From: a bacterium
GTDB taxonomy: Bacteria; Patescibacteriota; Minisyncoccia; Phycocordibacterales; UBA9973
DNA: 49,090 nt
NCBI GenBank assembly: GCA_037130335.1
Contig: JBAXTD010000002.1
Coordinates: 1-49,090, forward strand
Reading direction: 5' to 3'
A program made the position numbers and the translations under genes. Under the pieces are notes generated by a model that worked only from the letters and a program-made list of their open reading frames with translations, searched no databases and had not been told where the DNA came from. Below are positions 1,900 through 25,416 of this stretch, in pieces. Position 1 is the stretch's first letter. Each line of letters begins with the position of its first letter.

Positions 1900-2676
1900 A
1901 TGAAAGAAACACAAATGAAAGATGCTTTCGGACTTTTTGCAAAGAATTATAAAAAGTATCGTGGTGAGCCAGATAAGAAACTATATAAACACATAGCTTC
2001 TTTAGTTTCTGATTTTAAAACTAAAGAAAAAATTTCAATTCTAGATATTGGTTGCGGGGTGGGTAATTCAACAGAACCGTTATTGAAGTTAAAAAGAGTT
2101 TCTGTTTCGGGTTGCGATATTGATGAACGAATGATCAAGGAAGCAAGGTTGAGTGCAAAGAAAAATAATTTGCCGATAAATTATGTGTCGGCTCCGGCAG
2201 AAAAATTATCTTTTGAAAAAGAAAGTTTCAATATGGCGATTTCGGGCGCTGCGTTTCATTGGTTTGCAACAATGAAGGCAATGAATGAAATAAAACGAGT
2301 ACTGAAGAAAGATGGGATATATCTTGTTTCTTGGTTAGTTGGAACTGATAATACGTCTCCAGTTGGTGTTGAAATATACAAGAAATATAAATGGTCTGGA
2401 ATTCCACAAAAACTGCGAGATATTGAATATGTAAAAAATATTTTTATTAAAGCCAAATTTAATAATGTTCAGACAGTAAAAATTCCTACGATTGAAAAAC
2501 GCAATATAGATGATACGCTTGGTTTAATAAAAACAAACTCGATGTATTCATTACTTACGGCAGAACAACGAAAAGATTTTGATATAAGCATGAAGAACGC
2601 ATATAAAATGGCCTACAAAAAAGATGACATTATAACCACAAAACATGACATGTGTATTTGCTGGGGATATAAGTAA
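1900..2676 (+). CDS. Class I SAM-dependent methyltransferase
   Basis: ILDIGCGVG motif I, GCDIDERMI, AEKLSFEKESFNMAISGAAFHWF, RVLKKDG. Confidence 0.9.
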   Translation: MKETQMKDAFGLFAKNYKKYRGEPDKKLYKHIASLVSDFKTKEKISILDIGCGVGNSTEPLLKLKRVSVSGCDIDERMIKEARLSAKKNNLPINYVSAPAEKLSFEKESFNMAISGAAFHWFATMKAMNEIKRVLKKDGIYLVSWLVGTDNTSPVGVEIYKKYKWSGIPQKLRDIEYVKNIFIKAKFNNVQTVKIPTIEKRNIDDTLGLIKTNSMYSLLTAEQRKDFDISMKNAYKMAYKKDDIITTKHDMCICWGYK

Positions 2677-2716
2677 AATTATTTATTATAAAAAAATACT
2701 TCTATATACTTACAAC

Positions 2717-3091
2717 ATGGATAAAAAACAAGCACAGAAACTTTTGATGATTTATGGAGAAGCTTGGGAAAAACGAGACCCAGAGCTTATTCTCACTATC
2801 TTTACGCCAGATGCCACATACGATGATCCACACGAACCAAAAAATTTCGGCCATGATGAGATACGTGCTTATTGGGTAAATAAAGTTATTGGCGAACAAA
2901 AAGATATTCATTTTACTTTATTGAATACTTGGGTGGATGGAGAAACTGTTGTTGCTGAATGGAAAGCAGATTTTATTGACACAAAACGTAATTTTAAGAT
3001 TGACATGGTAGAGGTTGCAATATTTGGTACCCGAGAAGGGAAATTCAGTTCATTGAGAGAGTATTATAAATCTATTAAAACCAATCTTTAG
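2717..3091 (+). CDS. NTF2/SnoaL-like family protein
   Basis: AWEKRDPELILTIFTPDATYDDP...GHDEIRAYW...LREYY. Start moved to ATG 2717, which lies 6 nt after TATACT. Confidence 0.8.
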   Translation: MDKKQAQKLLMIYGEAWEKRDPELILTIFTPDATYDDPHEPKNFGHDEIRAYWVNKVIGEQKDIHFTLLNTWVDGETVVAEWKADFIDTKRNFKIDMVEVAIFGTREGKFSSLREYYKSIKTNL

Positions 3092-3200
3092 TCGTAGGGT
3101 GTCAAAGTTAGACAATAAAAAAACATATAGGGAATTGAAATTCACAACAGTTTTTTTTTGAGAGTGTAATTTAATATTGTTTGATGTTATGATTAGTTTT

Positions 3201-5459
3201 ATGAAAAACTTTTTCAGGAATTTTTCTTTTATCAAATTATTATTGACGGCAGTCTTTTTTGTTTTTTCAGTTTCTATCTTTTTACCACAGACGGTAGAAG
3301 CTAGTACTCCTTTTATTACAACTTGGAAAACTGACAATCCGGGAACTTCGGCTAGTAATCAGATCACAATTCCGACGAGAGGTGGTGGATATAATTATAA
3401 TGTTGATTGGGGAGATACTACTACAAGTAGCGGGGTAACTGGAAACATTACGCATACGTATGCAACTCCGGGCACATACACTGTTTCAATCTCAGGAACT
3501 TTCCCTGGAATTTATTTCAATGGCGGCGGAGATAGAAGAAAAATATTAACCGTTCAACAATGGGGAACAATCGGTTGGACTTTTATGAACCATGCGTTTG
3601 AAGGAGCAAGCAATCTCACGAGTACTGCAGTGGATGTTCCGATTTTGTCGGGAGTGACTGATATGAGTTATATGTTTAAAAATGCTCCATTATGGAATGC
3701 CAATAATATGCCTGGATGGAATACGTCGAATGTAACTTTGATGAATTGGATGTTTTATAACGACACTGCATTTAACCAAGACATTAGTTCATGGAATGTT
3801 TCGCACGTAACTGATATGAGCTTTATGTTTGGTGGAGATTCTGCCATGGCTTTCAATCAGCCTATTGGTACATGGACGACAACTTCGCTTACACTTGCAA
3901 ACTGGATGTTTTACAATGCTACATCATTTAATCAACCACTTGATTCTTGGGATGTTTCGCATGTGACTGACATGAGTTATATGTTTCAAAATGCCAGTGC
4001 TTTTAATCAGTCTTTGAACTCATGGAGTACATCAAACGTGTATTACATGAATAGTATGTTTAAAAATGCGACACACTTTAATGGAAATATCAGTTCTTGG
4101 AATACTTCTGGTTTGCATGTAATGGACCAAATGTTTTCTGGTGCGACCGTATTCAATGGCGCGATTGGTTCGTGGGACGTATCGCATGTAAACAATATGG
4201 ATTCCATTTTTTGGAATGATGCAGCGTTCAATCAAAACATTAATGCTTGGAATATGTCTACAGTCACATATACAGGTAATATGTTTTCAGGAGATACTGC
4301 CTTTAATCAAGATTTACATTCGTGGGACGTATCTCATGTATTAAATATGGATAGCATGTTTTATCACGATACAGCCTTCAATCAATCTTTGAGTACATGG
4401 GATGTCTCAGGTGTACTTTACATGGGTAATATGTTTGATGGTGTTACGCTTTCAACCGCAAACTACGATGCAACATTGGCCGCTTGGTCACTAGAATCTT
4501 TACGTATTCTGGTAACTCTCGATGCAGGTAATAGTCGCTACTGTTCTTCGGTTACACAGAGAGCAAGTATGATTAGCGTACGTGGTTGGACTATTAATGA
4601 TGGAGGTCTTGGTTGTTTTACTCTTACTTACACAGCTGGTGCCAATGGTTCAATAAATGGGACAACACCGCAGACCGTTTCGCTTGGCGCTAACGGTTCT
4701 GCTGTTACTGCTGTTCCAAATAGTGGATATTCTTTTTCTGGATGGTCGGACTCATCGACCACAAACCCACGTACTGATACGAGTGTCGGTGGCAACATCA
4801 GCGCAACTGCACTTTTTGCGGCACTTCCAGTTGCAGTAAGTAATCATACGGGTCATGCTGTGATTGCTGTTAATCCGCGTGCGATGGATAATTCTTCAAA
4901 TCTAGATTTTTCTATTAACGATGGTGCTGTAACTACAACGTCACCAGTTGTTGCACTTACATTGAATGCGGACCCAAATACCGTCAACGGTTATGCTGTT
5001 TCATTAGATTCAACTTTTGCAAATACTGGAATACAAACCTATGCACGTGGTACAAAAGGTTCGTTTCAACTTCCTAATAAATCTGGAACGTATACTTTGT
5101 ATGTGGAATATTTCTCAACGACGGGAAATCATTCACCGGTGATTTCAAAAACTATTTCATATAATCCGAGCGGTTCTAATATAAATTCTGTAAATCAATC
5201 AACGAACTCAAAAAATGTTTTTACTCGCACATTAAATTTTGGTTCGAATGGATCTGACGTTACGGCCTTGCAAAAGTTTCTAATAAAAGATGGGGAACTA
5301 ATATTTCCAAGTGGTAGTATGTATGGAAATTTTGGAAAATTAACTCAGACGGCATTAAAAAAATTTCAAATAAAATATAAAATTTCAAAATCTGGTGATG
5401 CAGGATATGGAGTTTTTGGTCCAAAAACTCGCGCACAAGTAAATGTGCTTTCGATTTAG
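3201..5459 (+). CDS. BspA-like (DUF285) repeat surface protein with PKD-like, InlB-B-repeat-like and C-terminal peptidoglycan-binding domains
   Basis: Signal-like N terminus; VDWGD...THTYATPGTYTVSISG; about 11 FNQxxxxWdvSxVtxMxxMF repeats; LTYTAGANGSI...FSGWSD; RTLNFGSNGSDVTALQKFL...FGKLTQTALKKFQ...GPKTRA. Start set at ATG 3201, 7 nt after TGtTATGAT. Confidence 0.88.
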   Translation: MKNFFRNFSFIKLLLTAVFFVFSVSIFLPQTVEASTPFITTWKTDNPGTSASNQITIPTRGGGYNYNVDWGDTTTSSGVTGNITHTYATPGTYTVSISGTFPGIYFNGGGDRRKILTVQQWGTIGWTFMNHAFEGASNLTSTAVDVPILSGVTDMSYMFKNAPLWNANNMPGWNTSNVTLMNWMFYNDTAFNQDISSWNVSHVTDMSFMFGGDSAMAFNQPIGTWTTTSLTLANWMFYNATSFNQPLDSWDVSHVTDMSYMFQNASAFNQSLNSWSTSNVYYMNSMFKNATHFNGNISSWNTSGLHVMDQMFSGATVFNGAIGSWDVSHVNNMDSIFWNDAAFNQNINAWNMSTVTYTGNMFSGDTAFNQDLHSWDVSHVLNMDSMFYHDTAFNQSLSTWDVSGVLYMGNMFDGVTLSTANYDATLAAWSLESLRILVTLDAGNSRYCSSVTQRASMISVRGWTINDGGLGCFTLTYTAGANGSINGTTPQTVSLGANGSAVTAVPNSGYSFSGWSDSSTTNPRTDTSVGGNISATALFAALPVAVSNHTGHAVIAVNPRAMDNSSNLDFSINDGAVTTTSPVVALTLNADPNTVNGYAVSLDSTFANTGIQTYARGTKGSFQLPNKSGTYTLYVEYFSTTGNHSPVISKTISYNPSGSNINSVNQSTNSKNVFTRTLNFGSNGSDVTALQKFLIKDGELIFPSGSMYGNFGKLTQTALKKFQIKYKISKSGDAGYGVFGPKTRAQVNVLSI
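3645..4440 (+). repeat. Coding tandem ~25-aa BspA/DUF285 repeats
   Basis: About 75-bp periodicity with near-identical DNA units, e.g. TCGTGGGACGTATCGCATGTA near 4170 and TCGTGGGACGTATCTCATGTA near 4320. Boundaries approximate. Confidence 0.85.
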
Positions 5460-19624: not shown

Positions 19625-20047
19625 ATGAAACTCAAAGTCAAAAAATTAAAAGACGGCGCGCAATTACCCAAATATGCCAAAGAAGGCGATGTGGGGCTTG
19701 ATATGTATGCGATGGAACAGGTGACAATCAAACCCGGCGAGCACTATCGTCTTTGGCACGGATTAGCGCTTGAATTTCCAACTGGTTATGCGGCAATCGT
19801 CAAAGACAAATCAAGTATTTCCAAAGCAGGACTTCATACAATGGGTGGTGTGTTTGATGCGGGATATCGCGGCGAATACAACACACACCTCGTAAACCTC
19901 AGTACTGAACCGTATACAATTGAAGTCGGGGATAAAGTCTCACAAATCGTGATTTTGCCAGTCGCTATTGCAGAAATCGAGGAAACTGATACTCTGAGTG
20001 AGTCAGAGCGTGGCACGGGCGGATTTGGTTCAACAGGAAAGAAATAA
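19625..20047 (+). CDS. dut: dUTP diphosphatase
   Basis: GLDMYA, KSSIS, GVFDAGYRGE, GDKVSQIV, RGTGGFGSTG. Confidence 0.96.
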   Translation: MKLKVKKLKDGAQLPKYAKEGDVGLDMYAMEQVTIKPGEHYRLWHGLALEFPTGYAAIVKDKSSISKAGLHTMGGVFDAGYRGEYNTHLVNLSTEPYTIEVGDKVSQIVILPVAIAEIEETDTLSESERGTGGFGSTGKK

Positions 20048-21765
20048 TGAATATCAAAAACGAATTAGAAAAAATAATTAAACAAGCACTCCAAAATCTC
20101 GGCATTGAAACCGAGACTGTTTCACTTGAACATCCGGCAGAATTAACTCACGGAGATTATTCGACAAACGTCGCGCTCGCATGTGCCAAAGGCGCAAAAC
20201 AAAATCCAAAAGAATTGGCTCAAAAAATCGTTGACGAGCTTTTGAAAAACAAACCAAATGAAATTGAAAAAATTGAATTGGCTGGTCCGGGATTCATCAA
20301 TTTTTATTTATCCAAAGAATTTTTTGTACAGTCAGTAAAAGAAATTCATGAGGCGCAAAAATGGGGAAGTAATGAATCTTCATCTGGTAAAAAGGTGATG
20401 GTGGAGTACACTGATCCGAATCCTTTCAAGCCGTTTCATATTGGTCACTTGATGACAAACGCAATTGGTGAATCAATCGCGAGAATTTTTGAATATTCGG
20501 GTGCGGAAGTTATTCGTGCGAATTACCAAGGTGATGTGGGACTTCATGTTGCGAAAGCGATTTGGGCTTTACTCAAAAAAGGTAAAGGAGATACAGATCT
20601 TTCAATTGAGGCACAAGCACAATATATCGGTATGTGTTATACCGAGGCATCTACCGCATACGATTCAGACGAAAATGCGAAAGCAGAAATCGATGCAATA
20701 AACAAAAAAGTATATGAACGAAGCGATGAAAGTATAAATGAGATATACGACTGGGGTCGCAAGATTACGCTTGAGGCTTTTGAAACAATTTATAAAACAC
20801 TTGGTACGAAATTTAGTCCGAATTGTTATTTTTTTGAAAGCATCATGGCGCCGATTGGAAAAAAGGTTGTCCAAGAAAATACAGGAAAAGTTTTTGAAGA
20901 ATCAGATGGAGCAGTTGTGTTTAAGGCTGAAAATTATAATCCCAAATTACATACTCGTGTGTTTATTACAAAACAAGGACTTCCAACATACGAAGCAAAA
21001 GAGATTGGTCTCACTATTACAAAATTTACCCAAGAAAATCCCGATACATCAATTGTGGTAACTGCAATTGAGCAAGGTCCATACATGGAAGTTGTTCAAA
21101 AGGCGTTGTCGCTGATCCATCCTGAATATGAATCTCGTATGAAGCATGTGACACACGGTATGATGCGGTTCGCATCGGGTAAAATGAGTTCCCGAAAAGG
21201 AAATGTAATTACTGGTGAATCACTTCTTAATGATTCGTATGAACTTGTACATGAAAAAATTGCAGAGCGAGAATTAAGTGATGATCAAAAAAATATCATC
21301 GCGCATCAAGTTGGTGTGGCAGCAATTAAATACACAATTCTCAAACAGGCGCTCGGCGGGAATATTATTTACGATGAAGAAAAATCCGTTTCATTCGAAG
21401 GTGATTCTGGTCCGTATTTGCAATACACTGCAGTACGTTCGCATTCGATTCTAGAGAAGGCTCATAAAGAGGGAATGCAATCACAGCTTGCGTTGCCAGA
21501 AAATTGGGAAACTACAATGCTCGAAAAATATTTATATCGATTTCCAGAAGTCGTACTTTTGTCATACCAAAAACTCGAACCACATGGCATCGCCACATAT
21601 TTGAGTGAACTTTCATCAACATTTAATTCGTTTTATGCACAGCAACAAATTATCGATAAAAATGATATTGCTTCGCCATATCGAATTGCACTCGTAGAAG
21701 CATTTCTCAAAACAATGCACAATGGTTTATACCTTCTTGGAATTTCTGTTCCAGAAAGAATGTAA
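20047..21765 (+). CDS. argS: Arginine--tRNA ligase
   Basis: GDYSTNVAL, AGPGFINF, VEYTDPNPFKPFHIGHL, KMSSRKG, FEGDSGPYLQY, DALR-like C terminus. Confidence 0.97.
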   Translation: MNIKNELEKIIKQALQNLGIETETVSLEHPAELTHGDYSTNVALACAKGAKQNPKELAQKIVDELLKNKPNEIEKIELAGPGFINFYLSKEFFVQSVKEIHEAQKWGSNESSSGKKVMVEYTDPNPFKPFHIGHLMTNAIGESIARIFEYSGAEVIRANYQGDVGLHVAKAIWALLKKGKGDTDLSIEAQAQYIGMCYTEASTAYDSDENAKAEIDAINKKVYERSDESINEIYDWGRKITLEAFETIYKTLGTKFSPNCYFFESIMAPIGKKVVQENTGKVFEESDGAVVFKAENYNPKLHTRVFITKQGLPTYEAKEIGLTITKFTQENPDTSIVVTAIEQGPYMEVVQKALSLIHPEYESRMKHVTHGMMRFASGKMSSRKGNVITGESLLNDSYELVHEKIAERELSDDQKNIIAHQVGVAAIKYTILKQALGGNIIYDEEKSVSFEGDSGPYLQYTAVRSHSILEKAHKEGMQSQLALPENWETTMLEKYLYRFPEVVLLSYQKLEPHGIATYLSELSSTFNSFYAQQQIIDKNDIASPYRIALVEAFLKTMHNGLYLLGISVPERM

Positions 21766-21807
21766 TATTCTTTACAAATGGGTTTTATTTGGTAATATGA
21801 ATTTGTA

Positions 21808-21976
21808 GCGTTGATGGGGTAATCACCTCGGAGCTCGGGAAAGAACATGAGCAAAGCTTGTAAGTAGAATCCCAAATAAATAAGCCCAAAGGAATACCGG
21901 AGGGGAATGAAGGTGGTACCACGGGAATCCCGTCCTTAAATAATAATGTAATTATTATTTAAGGACGGGATTTTTT
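21808..21976 (+). ncRNA. Ile T-box riboswitch (ultrashort Stem I) with transcription terminator
   Basis: Stem I TGGGG-TAATCA-CCTCG with specifier ATC at 21822-24. Stem II carries GAA/AGTA S-turn elements. Antiterminator AAGG-TGGTACC-ACGGG-AAT-CCCGT-CCTT (21910-37). A 22-bp terminator spans 21926-21972, followed by T's. Promoter TTTACA-16-TAATAT at 21771-21798. Confidence 0.9.
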
Positions 21977-22005
21977 AATTTATTAATTCTAATTTTATAA
22001 ACAAT

Positions 22006-25000
22006 ATGTCAGAAGAAAACAAAAAATCAGCAAGTGCGATGCGTGAAGAAAAAATTCTCGAATTTTGGAAAGAGAATGATACGTTTGCACAAACACTCGC
22101 CAAAAACGAAGGCAAGGATCCTTTTGTTTTTTATGAAGGTCCACCAACCGCGAACGGCAAACCTGGTATTCACCATCTCGAAGCTCGAGCTTTTAAAGAT
22201 GCAATTCCTCGGTACAAAACGATGCAGGGATTTAATGTGCGTCGCAAGGGCGGATGGGATACGCATGGATTGCCTGTGGAATTGCAGGTAGAAAAAGCGC
22301 TCGGACTTAATTCCAAAAAAGCGATTGAAGAATATGGTATCGCAAAATTTAATGACAAATGTAAAGAATCTGTCTGGCAGTTTCTCGACATCTGGGAAAA
22401 GTTTACCGACCGCATCGGATATTGGGTTGATCAAAAAAATCCGTATGTCACATATCACAATGATTACATCGAATCCGTATGGAATGTCGTTAAAGAAGTA
22501 AACAAAAAAGATTTACTCTACAAAGATTACAAAATCGTACCATGGTGTCCACGTTGTGGAACTGCGCTTTCGTCGCACGAGCTTGCACAAGGATATCAAG
22601 ATGATAAAGATTTGTCAGTAACGGCAAAATTTAAAGTGGTGGGTCAAGTTGATACATTTATACTGGCTTGGACGACAACTCCTTGGACATTGCCTGGAAA
22701 TGTCGCGTTAGCCGTTGGAAAAGAAATTGAATATGCTCTTGTTCAAACTGATGCTGGTAAATTGTGGCTCGCAAAAGCTTTGGTCGAAAAGGTTGCTGCG
22801 GGAAGTCAGATTTTGGAAACAAAAAAAGGTTTAGACCTTATCGGTCTCGAATATGAACCACTCTATCCATATCTCAAAGACAATATCGCTGATGACCAAA
22901 AAGCAAAATTAGAAAAAGCATTCAAGGTGTATGCTGCGGATTTTGTGACGACGGAGGATGGTACGGGTGTGGTGCATACAGCTGTGATGTATGGAGCAGA
23001 TGACTTTGAACTCGGTACGAAACTTGGATTACCGAAACAGCACATGGTGAATCTCGATGGTACATTTGTGTCATACGCAGACTTTCTCGCGGGACGATTT
23101 GTAAAAGATGAAGATGTCGCAGTGGACATCATCAAAGACCTCGCGCATCGAGGACTACTTTTCAAAAAAGAAAAATACGAACACTCATATCCGCACTGTT
23201 GGCGTTGCAAAACTCCACTCATATATTACGCGCGTGATTCGTGGTACATCAATGTTTCAAAACCTGAAATCAAAGATGTGATGATTGCCGAAAACAAAAA
23301 AATAAATTGGGAACCAAATTACATTCGTGACGGACGTTTTGGCGAATGGCTCAAAGATATCAAAGATTGGGCGATTTCTCGTGAGCGATACTGGGGAACA
23401 CCGCTTCCAATTTGGATGACGGGGGATGGCACAATTGAAGTCATCGGTGGTGTCGATGAATTGAAATCAAAAACCAAAAAATCTGGAAATAAATATTTCG
23501 CAATGCGACATGGATATGGCCAGCATATGGAACACGGCGGTGTGGTAAGTTCACTCGATCATGATTCGTATCATTTGACCGACGAGGGCAGATCAGAAGT
23601 TGCCAAATCCGCACACATGCTTCATGAGAAAAAAATTACAAAGATTTTTTGTTCACCACTTATTCGTACGCGCGAAACTGCGCGTATCACTGCCGAGCAT
23701 TTGGGAATCAACCCAGATTTAATTGTGGTCGACAACAGACTTCGCGAATATGATTTCGGAGAATTTGATGGTAAGCCGTTCAAAGAATTTGTTGATTATC
23801 GAGAAACACATGCACATACATACGACGCCAAGCTTGGTGGTTCGTCACTTCTCGAAACCAAAAATCGTTTTGCAGAATTTCTATATGATATTGAATCTAA
23901 GTATCAAAATGAAACAATTTTGATTGTGACGCATGGAATATTTTTTGAAACAGTTCCTGCTGCTCTCGAAGGTGCAGACAAAGCCCGTTCGCTTGAAATT
24001 TTGTTTGATTATTTCAAAAATAATCGTATTCAACCAGCAGAATTTCGAGAAATTAATTTTGTTCCGATTCCACACAACGAAAATTATGAACTTGATTTAC
24101 ATAAACCATATATTGATAATGTGACACTGCTCGCGTCTGATGGTTCTGAGATGACTCGCGTCAAAGAGGTGATGGATGTCTGGTTTGATTCGGGTGCGAT
24201 GCCGTTTGCTCAAGACAATTATCCGTTTGCCACAAAAGAAGTCGCATATCCCGCAGATTATATTTGTGAGGCAATTGACCAAACACGCGGATGGTTTTAT
24301 ACACTTCATGCTGTGGGCGTTTTGATGGGCAAAGGATTGGCGTACAAAAACGTAATTTGTCTCGGACACATTCTCGACGAAAAAGGAAAGAAGATGTCGA
24401 AGTCTCTCGGAAACATTGTCGATCCATGGACCATGATTGAAAAATACGGGGTTGATACATTACGTCTCTGGATGTATTCGGTCAATCAACCCGGTGAATC
24501 CAAAAACTTTGATGAAAAGACGGTGGCTGAATTGCACAACAAAGTATTTAATTTACTCTACAACGTGCTCGCGTTTTATGAATTATATCGCGACACTGAA
24601 CTTGAAAATTCGCACTATTCAAATTCAAACAACGTGCTTGATCAATGGATTGTGGCACGACTTAATCAATTGATTGAATTATCGACAACTAATTTAGATA
24701 ATTTCAAATTGCTCGAACCTGTGCGTGCGATGCGAGAATTTGTCGATGATTTGTCGACCTGGTACGTGCGTCGTTCGCGTGACCGAATAAAAGATGGAGA
24801 TAAGGAAGCAAAGCAAACACTGTATTTTGTGTTGAAAAATTTCGCGAAACTCCTCGCGCCATTTGCACCATTTGCCGCAGAAGATATCTGGCAGAAATTA
24901 AAAAATAATTCAGACATACAAAGTGTGCATCTTTGCGATTGGCCAAAAAATAATGAGGTTGATATTTCTGTTTTAGAGAAAATGCAATCAACTCGCATGG

Positions 25001-25416
25001 TTGTTACTCTTGGAATGGAAGCACGGCAAAAAGAAAAATTTCCTGTACGTCAGCCTTTGCAAAAAATTACAATTACAAATATTGAGTTACCAATTGACTA
25101 TGTTGAATTGATACTTAAAGATGAATTAAATATTAAGGATGTTAACTTTGTAATCAAAGAAGGTGAAGAGCAAAAAGTTGAACTCGACACAAACATCACT
25201 CCAGAACTCAAAAAAGAAGGTGAGTATCGCGAGCTTGTGCGTGCGATTCAGGATTTGCGCAAAAAAGAAGGACTTACACCAAGTGACGTAATCGTGCTTA
25301 CGCTCCCAGAAAATTCAAAAGAAATAGTTTCAGGTTTTGAAGATGAGTTAAAAAAGACAGTGCTCGCAAAAGAAATTACTATTTCTGGAGACGAAATTCA
25401 AATTGCAAAAATATAA
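22006..25416 (+). CDS. ileS: Isoleucine--tRNA ligase, type 2, with an in-frame histidine-phosphatase domain
   Basis: FYEGPPTANGKPGIHH, GWDTHGLPVE, WTTTPWTLPGN, GTGVVH, WAISRERYWG, WFDSG, DQTRGWF, KMSKS, type-2 C terminus. RHG...THG phosphatase insert at about 23488-24070. Confidence 0.97.
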   Translation: MSEENKKSASAMREEKILEFWKENDTFAQTLAKNEGKDPFVFYEGPPTANGKPGIHHLEARAFKDAIPRYKTMQGFNVRRKGGWDTHGLPVELQVEKALGLNSKKAIEEYGIAKFNDKCKESVWQFLDIWEKFTDRIGYWVDQKNPYVTYHNDYIESVWNVVKEVNKKDLLYKDYKIVPWCPRCGTALSSHELAQGYQDDKDLSVTAKFKVVGQVDTFILAWTTTPWTLPGNVALAVGKEIEYALVQTDAGKLWLAKALVEKVAAGSQILETKKGLDLIGLEYEPLYPYLKDNIADDQKAKLEKAFKVYAADFVTTEDGTGVVHTAVMYGADDFELGTKLGLPKQHMVNLDGTFVSYADFLAGRFVKDEDVAVDIIKDLAHRGLLFKKEKYEHSYPHCWRCKTPLIYYARDSWYINVSKPEIKDVMIAENKKINWEPNYIRDGRFGEWLKDIKDWAISRERYWGTPLPIWMTGDGTIEVIGGVDELKSKTKKSGNKYFAMRHGYGQHMEHGGVVSSLDHDSYHLTDEGRSEVAKSAHMLHEKKITKIFCSPLIRTRETARITAEHLGINPDLIVVDNRLREYDFGEFDGKPFKEFVDYRETHAHTYDAKLGGSSLLETKNRFAEFLYDIESKYQNETILIVTHGIFFETVPAALEGADKARSLEILFDYFKNNRIQPAEFREINFVPIPHNENYELDLHKPYIDNVTLLASDGSEMTRVKEVMDVWFDSGAMPFAQDNYPFATKEVAYPADYICEAIDQTRGWFYTLHAVGVLMGKGLAYKNVICLGHILDEKGKKMSKSLGNIVDPWTMIEKYGVDTLRLWMYSVNQPGESKNFDEKTVAELHNKVFNLLYNVLAFYELYRDTELENSHYSNSNNVLDQWIVARLNQLIELSTTNLDNFKLLEPVRAMREFVDDLSTWYVRRSRDRIKDGDKEAKQTLYFVLKNFAKLLAPFAPFAAEDIWQKLKNNSDIQSVHLCDWPKNNEVDISVLEKMQSTRMVVTLGMEARQKEKFPVRQPLQKITITNIELPIDYVELILKDELNIKDVNFVIKEGEEQKVELDTNITPELKKEGEYRELVRAIQDLRKKEGLTPSDVIVLTLPENSKEIVSGFEDELKKTVLAKEITISGDEIQIAKI

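Follow-up and report, generated by a model that had tools for sequence, protein, structure and literature searches.

Whether a tRNA sensor reduced to an ultrashort Stem I can be wired to a transcription terminator is the question raised by the DNA between argS and ileS in the window, that is, the whole stretch of 49,090 nt that was analysed. Reviews in the field regard this combination as disfavoured, and it goes undetected by standard databases. According to the kinetic argument made in those reviews, a terminator allows one short window for tRNA capture, so that contact with the tRNA elbow is thought to be needed (PMC7583486). Class III T-boxes, which are defined by a short Stem I without the platform, a specifier in a 5–6-nt apical loop and a required Stem II, "mostly" regulate translation (PMC10482949). 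An earlier note, made from the letters of the window alone, had proposed a hybrid of a minimal sensor and a transcriptional platform at this locus; the analysis below bears this out as an architecture, which implies nothing about its evolutionary origin.

The leader lies between argS (20047–21765), encoding arginyl-tRNA synthetase (Pfam tRNA-synt_1d, DALR_1 and Arg_tRNA_synt_N), and ileS (22006–25416), the gene under proposed control, which encodes a protein of 1136 aa with an inserted His_Phos_1 domain (TIGR00392, 873 bits; Pfam). Both genes and all features of the leader are on the forward strand, and positions 21771–21976 hold a promoter and a 170-nt ileS leader. The closest relatives of the encoded IleRS were found in Nomurabacteria/Paceibacteria MAGs of Patescibacteria (66–87% identity). 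The lineage is therefore as the earlier note had suspected, a CPR-like one not usually associated with T-boxes, and no T-box literature was found for CPR names. The window belongs to an 85.6-kb contig from a lake-water metagenome; the stretch was present in lake-water DNA sequencing runs, and no RNA run was among the runs containing it.

Stem I spans only 29 nt (21807–21835) in the Rfam alignment, and the segments from which it had first been recognised, GCGTT-GA-TGGGG-TAATCA-CCTCG-GA-GC, stand at 21808–21834. Its base forms a K-turn, with a C-stem (21807–09/21833–35), a bulge (21810–12) and tandem G·A pairs (21813–14/21831–32). Above the K-turn, a 5-bp helix (21815–19/21826–30) carries the apical hexaloop UAAUCA (21820–25), which contains the Ile specifier AUC (21822–21824) and the conserved 3′ purine A (21825). 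Stem II (21837–21873) was obtained by folding and comprises a lower helix (21837–40/21870–73), an upper helix with an AAA loop (21847–61) and an S-turn in which AAGAA (21841–45) lies opposite AAGUAGAA (21862–69); the GAA (21843–45) and AGTA (21863–66) previously assigned to S-turn elements both sit inside this hairpin. An A-rich 11-nt linker, AAAUAAAUAAG (21874–21884), follows; it ends 3′ in AAG, which forms the purine string lying 5′ of Stem III. Stem III (21885–21904; −5.8 kcal/mol by folding) consists of CCC/GGG and GG/CC helices, a GA-rich internal loop and an AAUA loop. It is followed by AA (21906–07; A101 and A102), which is invariant in the 49 leaders compared below.

The antiterminator (21910–21937) was located by its Rfam match and is composed of helix A1 (21910–13/21934–37), the 7-nt T-box bulge UGGUACC (21914–20) and helix A2 (21921–25/21929–33). 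The segment AAGGUGGUACCACGGG (21910–21925) was aligned to RF00230 at high posterior probability, and GGTGGTACC was located at 21912–21920; UGGU of the bulge is the predicted pairing partner of the tRNA 3′-ACCA. Downstream, the intrinsic terminator (21925–21976) is a 23-bp hairpin (21925–47/21951–73) with a GUA loop and a U tract (21971–76). Its core is a perfect 22-nt inverted repeat (21926–47/21951–72), to which one G-U pair adds the twenty-third base pair, and TTTTTT follows; the perfect 22-bp terminator with a U tract described earlier is thus present. Since the 5′ arm of the terminator (21925–47) includes the 3′ strands of both A2 and A1, the terminator and antiterminator are mutually exclusive, again in agreement with the first description. 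The computed energies were −30 kcal/mol for the terminator versus −6.5 kcal/mol for the antiterminator, the same ordering as the TBDB mean energies (−19.5 and −7.4, respectively). The U tract ends 30 nt before the ileS ATG at 22006, and the hairpin does not include the ATG.

In a permissive scan with Rfam RF00230, the window leader was aligned end to end and scored 34.2 bits, below the 93-bit gathering threshold (E = 4e-6 on 401 nt locally and 5e-4 over the whole window), and 74 Stem I positions were replaced by 4 nt. The Rfam check that the earlier note had recommended yielded a complete alignment and a score under the cut-off. At the curated threshold, no match was obtained in the window and none of 19 relatives was detected. 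In TBDB, the short-Stem-I Ile model is applied to Actinobacteria only, and RF00230 is used for other lineages. A covariance model was then built from 17 leaders, with the whole clade of the window excluded and the structure chosen by RNAalifold. This leave-clade-out model scored the window at 101.6 bits over the full length (E ~5e-22), and the leader fold had a z value of −4.5. The 9-mer GGTGGNACC by itself was within chance (at least one match in 33 of 100 shuffles) and was rejected as stand-alone evidence. The composite T-box structure is beyond chance. In addition, the collapse of Stem I in the RF00230 alignment and the agreement of the loop codon with ileS substantiate the assignment to an ultrashort-Stem-I Ile T-box.

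The layout is not peculiar to the window. A survey of ileS leaders, as had been proposed, covered 80 related Paceibacteria/Nomurabacteria species, and 48 of them have it before ileS; two of the 32 loci scored as absent (L012 and L045) are cut by contig ends. The 48 leaders and that of the window constitute the set of 49 used throughout (IleRS identity 66–87%). AUC and GGUGGUACC were invariant across all 49 leaders, G8 A9 and G26 A27 G28 of the K-turn were likewise invariant, and the S-turn residues of Stem II (GAA/AGUAGA) were invariant or nearly so. A U tract followed the hairpin in 48 of the 49, the exception (L078) running into Ns. Furthermore, a consensus scan placed a promoter at 21771–21798, with a −35 box TTTACA (21771–76), a 16-nt spacer and an extended −10 box TGG-TAATAT (21790–98), and predicted transcription to start at ~21804–21807, which is the base of Stem I. 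The promoter keeps a conserved register relative to that base among the 48 related leaders: the −35 box, there TTGCAA, is near −36 and the −10 box at −14, each keeping its distance from Stem I.

Covariation was evaluated for both conformers on alignment A3, which was fitted to the model, and a MAFFT seed alignment gave the same picture. In the terminator conformer, 93.9% of cells were paired and compensatory changes occurred in 23 of 34 pairs, a result equalled by none of 500 shuffles; as a control, sliding the partner columns by 1–3 lowered the pairing to 43–54%. The antiterminator conformer gave 92.4% paired cells and compensatory changes in 11 of 20 pairs, again with 0 of 500 shuffles equal. 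Within Stem I, four of the five helix pairs and all three C-stem pairs showed compensatory changes: at one pair, 18 leaders have AU and another 18 have GC, and the C-stem pairs alternate between UA, AU, GC and CG. The terminator itself was 96% paired, with compensatory changes in 14 of its 23 pairs, helix A1 was paired in 49 of 49 leaders, and helix A2 was compensatory at two pairs. Moreover, the U at the 3′ base of A2 has one A as its partner in the antiterminator and a different A in the terminator; the three positions are A, U, A in 46 leaders, and the other three (L051, L063 and L078) have G, C, G. Such three-way covariation is the expectation from selection on two alternative helices, and covariation in both helices adds to the mutual exclusivity already evident from the coordinates.

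The reading of the loop codon was assessed in sister leaders from metagenomes. The scan required an S-turn Stem II followed by GGTGGNACC within 44 nt, and left Stem I and the base N free. It returned more than 120 matches; among the 80 loci listed, 43 had a simple K-turn, a 5-bp helix and a 6–7-nt loop, and in nearly all of these a T-run followed. The loop codons of the 43 simple leaders were AUC (28), AAC (9), GAC (4) and GUC (2). At ten loci, six of them simple and four with other Stem I forms, the first downstream gene was identified. The GUC leaders L155 and L161 precede valS, the GAC leader L088 precedes a bacterial aspS, the AAC leaders L103 and L124 precede a short AspRS gene, and the AUC leader L153 precedes ileS; L115, whose Stem I loop was not parsed, also precedes valS. 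The two AAC leaders with N = C at L122 (1213–1280) and L138 (7885–7944) have an aspartate–tRNA(Asn) ligase downstream, above the curated cut-off, and at a third, L090 (5545–5627; AAC, N = C), the truncated ORF has its best match to the same ligase. A non-discriminating AspRS appears to be governed by tRNA-Asn charging. Because the codon agrees with the downstream gene in these sister leaders, the loop-codon reading is validated, and the Ile specifier that the earlier note had placed in the Stem I loop is borne out by its position before ileS, its invariance in 49 of 49 leaders and the pairing of GUC with valS, GAC with aspS and AAC with Asp/Asn-type synthetases elsewhere.

The variable bulge base N was U in all 49 ileS leaders, and among the simple metagenome leaders it was U in 28 of 28 with AUC, C in eight of nine with AAC and U in both with GUC. 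The expected discriminator base is A73 for tRNA-Ile and tRNA-Val and G73 for tRNA-Asn; N follows this general expectation, being U for Ile and Val and C for Asn. Only His, Val, Leu, Ser and Arg tRNAs were found in ~67 kb of the contig (the window and a further ~18 kb) and in the 80 loci, with no tRNA-Ile among them, and the host tRNA-Ile is taken by us to have the anticodon GAU and A73, as is general in bacteria.

Judged by sequence and conservation, the element is a real, conserved Ile T-box of the class III decoding type, wired to a predicted intrinsic terminator without a IIA/B pseudoknot, in Paceibacteria. Like the class III ileS T-boxes of Nocardia farcinica (PDB 6UFM), Mycobacterium tuberculosis (PDB 6UFG) and M. 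smegmatis, it combines AUC and a purine in a 5–6-nt apical loop with a K-turn at the Stem I base, no elbow platform, Stem III and a 7-nt UGGNACC bulge. The likeness to N. farcinica extends to the S-turn purine string A38-A39/A69-G70-A71 and the bulged G, as a sequence-level match only (PMC7583486). When the leader is numbered from 21807, its specifier A16-U17-C18-A19 and its S-turn residues A38 and A39 carry the N. farcinica numbers, and the 3′ strand AGUAGA is the same (PMC7583486). The actinobacterial class III T-boxes have a Shine–Dalgarno sequestrator as their output, whereas an intrinsic terminator with its U tract takes this role in the window leader, which also differs from them in the absence of IIA/B, in an A-U instead of a G-U basal pair of A2 and in its lineage, Patescibacteria.

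Other classes share fewer features with the leader. As in the class I T-boxes of Firmicutes (Bacillus subtilis tyrS; RF00230), the presumed target is an aminoacyl-tRNA synthetase gene, whereas Stem I has 29 nt versus ~90 and the specifier internal loop, double T-loop platform and IIA/B pseudoknot of class I are missing. The class II glycine T-boxes (B. subtilis glyQS) are similarly reduced by nature, transcriptional and free of a IIA/B pseudoknot; glyQS, however, keeps a long Stem I with the elbow platform and has no Stem II, which is the reverse of the window leader. At least seven relatives (L014, L021, L053, L057, L063, L071 and L074) have a short distal hairpin inserted 5′ of AUCA, which leaves the specifier lying within a side bulge between two helices without a platform and makes them class IV-like; the window has a simple apical loop, and all of these relatives, unlike the class IV comparison system, carry terminators. 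In other relatives a hairpin is inserted at the Stem I/II junction or in the A2 loop. T-boxes of ileS are also known in Chloroflexi and Deinococcus. A short-Stem-I T-box with a terminator was not found described in the searchable literature, the coverage of which is incomplete, and the word "mostly" in the class III definition leaves room for recorded exceptions.

On the observed anatomy and conservation of the leader, the covariation of its two alternative helices and the correspondence between codon and gene, we consider it very probable that the leader is a functional Ile T-box riboswitch that controls ileS by transcription attenuation. Binding of tRNA, sensing of its charging and termination itself are predicted from these features. 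The RNA would start from a dedicated promoter at the base of Stem I, and the K-turn and 5-bp helix would present AUC in the six-base end loop. The S-turn purines of Stem II would dock beside the specifier loop, so that Stems I and II together might clamp the GAU anticodon of tRNA-Ile as in the actinobacterial class III ileS T-boxes, the tRNA elbow being left untouched. Stem III and the antiterminator would then capture the free 3′-ACCA of uncharged tRNA-Ile on the UGGU of the bulge, and the weak antiterminator, stabilised in this way, would let RNA polymerase read into ileS. When tRNA-Ile is aminoacylated or missing, the far stronger 23-bp terminator would take up the 3′ strands of A1 and A2, and transcription would end on the U tract, which lies 30 nt upstream of the ATG.

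Among the points against this reading are that the window leader has neither the Stem I platform nor the IIA/B pseudoknot, that the basal pair of its A2 helix is A-U instead of the canonical G-U, and that the element has been lost repeatedly among the relatives, as described below. The distal double T-loop platform is absent from a Stem I that the RF00230 alignment reduces to a 5-bp helix with a 6-nt loop. In the window, the segment from Stem II to the T-box does not contain the IIA/B motif CGGG-N4-CCCG...AGC, and the suspicion voiced earlier that the sensor might be further reduced was correct. Two clade-mates (L002 and L007) keep the pseudoknot at exactly the site of the window linker (21874–21884), and it was therefore lost within the clade of the window. 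The hairpin at 21885–21904 was considered as a substitute for IIA/B and rejected, as it follows the conserved AAG, 11 nt from Stem II, at the Stem III position of the relatives. With regard to A2, the basal pair (21921/21933 in the window; A3 columns 376/434) is A-U in 46 of the 49 leaders, G-C in three and never G-U, a pair that has been described as a conserved steric sensor of the aminoacyl group.

A census of the 49 leaders showed how variable these parts are. The IIA/B pseudoknot is present in 11 (four with IIA/B only and seven with Stem III too), 13 including the window have Stem III only, so that a hairpin occupies the Stem III position in 20, and 23 have neither. Of the remaining two, L062 carries a plain hairpin at the IIA/B site and L004 is ambiguous. 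The pseudoknot is thus missing from the window and from 37 of the leaders, L004 being counted among them. In the 23 leaders with neither part, the gap from Stem II to helix A1 is only ~19 nt (consensus CUAUAAAUGAGAAGUAAGC). Purines on either side of Stem III (GAGAAG ... AA; in the window, AAG ... GAA) are retained even in leaders that no longer have the hairpin.

These reductions bear on a second reading, in which the T-box is functional but the reduced sensor alone is too slow or too weak co-transcriptionally and needs a helper. Such help might come from a K-turn-binding L7Ae-type protein, from a slow or pausing RNA polymerase, or from the long AU-rich upper terminator stem buying time. The reviews hold that the elbow platform is needed for fast tRNA capture and that IIA/B and Stem III are needed for binding (PMC7583486); deletion of the IIA/B pseudoknot in N. 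farcinica caused a ~1200-fold loss of tRNA binding, and Stem III was reported to be indispensable (PMC7583486). Of these three parts, the window leader is without two and 23 of the 49 leaders are without all three, the G·A pairs of the K-turn are invariant, and the terminators are long (23 modelled pairs) and strong (−30 kcal/mol versus the TBDB mean of −19.5). We nevertheless regard the need for a helper as unlikely, if worth serious consideration, given that class III decoding modules bind tRNA at nanomolar affinity without elbow contact (PMC10482949), that nothing in the sequence demands a cofactor and that no candidate helper was identified.

Attenuation of transcription, the reading that we favour, also has to be weighed against control of translation. 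As the earlier note had stated, no Shine–Dalgarno motif precedes the ATG at 22006, and even by a lax test an SD-like motif stands before only 4 of 43 window genes. A Parcubacteria subgroup without the anti-SD motif has been reported (PMC9297842). Because there is almost no Shine–Dalgarno sequence to mask, we infer that a sequestrator output would be unavailable and that the terminator is the only plausible output. Among the relatives, the distance from the terminator to the ATG ranges from 7 to ~350 nt, with no conserved ORF between, and this lack of conserved spacing argues against start-site masking. Masking of the start site by the hairpin was rejected on both grounds, the missing SD and the variable spacing. 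More broadly, the hairpin could be supposed to act on translation, or at both levels, by covering the ribosome entry region, like the ileS T-boxes of Actinobacteria. Reviews associate a decoding module of this type with control of translation, and in a few relatives the hairpin ends 7–12 nt before the ATG; in the window, however, it ends 30 nt upstream and leaves the ATG outside, Shine–Dalgarno motifs are missing before ileS and nearly so in the genome, the spacing to the ATG is not conserved and a U tract follows the hairpin in 48 of 49 leaders, which makes an output of this kind very improbable.

The T-box is patchily distributed on the IleRS tree, where no fewer than 12 changes are required by the well-supported branches alone. 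For an element this complex and so clearly homologous, these changes mean repeated loss, at least 12 times, and because it was lost so often among the relatives it is dispensable. In relatives without a T-box, ileS lies directly after argS or another gene and has a near-leaderless promoter. That the window leader is a decaying relic, its hairpin merely terminating argS transcripts while ileS is expressed independently of tRNA, could draw on these losses to a near-leaderless promoter and on the several canonical parts missing in the window, but is scarcely credible when 49 species at 66–87% IleRS identity show no variation in the specifier, the T-box bulge or the residues of the K-turn and S-turn, compensatory changes keep both alternative helices and the promoter of the leader is conserved in register.

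A functional attenuator at this locus would matter beyond ileS. A family that joins a short codon reader to a terminator is a natural test of the kinetic argument that separates transcriptional from translational T-boxes: should the reduced leaders function unaided, the accepted argument for a long Stem I would be wrong or incomplete. It also suggests why the outputs differ, since genomes without Shine–Dalgarno-led initiation would offer a sequestrator nothing to mask. Taking the sister leaders together, Patescibacteria may carry widespread, uncatalogued minimal transcriptional T-boxes, for at least Ile, Val, Asp and Asn, which would decide co-transcriptionally without touching the tRNA elbow and, in about half of the ileS leaders, with neither IIA/B nor Stem III; we hold this wider proposal to be an open contest that tilts slightly to the negative. 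If these leaders function unaided, sensors of ~100–130 nt would be the smallest natural sensors of tRNA charging known. The family also shows that catalogues built on Rfam are blind to T-boxes across a large part of bacterial diversity, and it offers very small tRNA-sensing modules for structural work and engineering. Three metagenome leaders (L105, L115 and L147) combine a GC-rich sequence with this S-turn/T-box core and a T-run. Such a composition suggests a host outside the CPR, and the reduced layout may thus extend beyond Patescibacteria.

Several further observations were made at the locus and among its relatives. By the Rfam scan the window has no other T-box, even though it also contains argS, a metG-like gene and a gene for a class II synthetase. 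In front of many window genes a −10 box stands no more than ~10 nt from the ATG, which suggests largely leaderless, SD-independent initiation. Eight relatives without the T-box (L016, L020, L033, L034, L047, L066, L068 and L079) share a near-identical ileS promoter and start, TG(C/T)TAAAATCAGCnAATA-ATG, in which the −10 box lies ~10 nt before the ATG. Spacers of 180–350 nt separate the terminator from ileS in L003, L004, L011, L018, L021, L024, L067 and L077, and that of L067 contains an 86-aa membrane-like ORF. With respect to taxonomy, L026 is labelled Nitrospira sp., and its IleRS is nested deep in Paceibacteria, which makes mis-binning of this contig probable; many of the TPA records that bear the label "uncultured Candidatus Saccharibacteria" also nest among Nomurabacteria/Paceibacteria by IleRS. 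Upstream of the window on the same contig, a tRNA-Ser(UGA) gene (L083, 2489–2576) overlaps the end of a same-strand gene (2540–3283) that has a faint LAGLIDADG match. Finally, the His_Phos_1 (histidine-phosphatase) domain of IleRS, with an RHG motif, is inserted just after WGTPxP (23503–24009 in the window; residues 500–668), and the insert was found in the IleRS of 73 of 74 assessable relatives, with or without a T-box alike.
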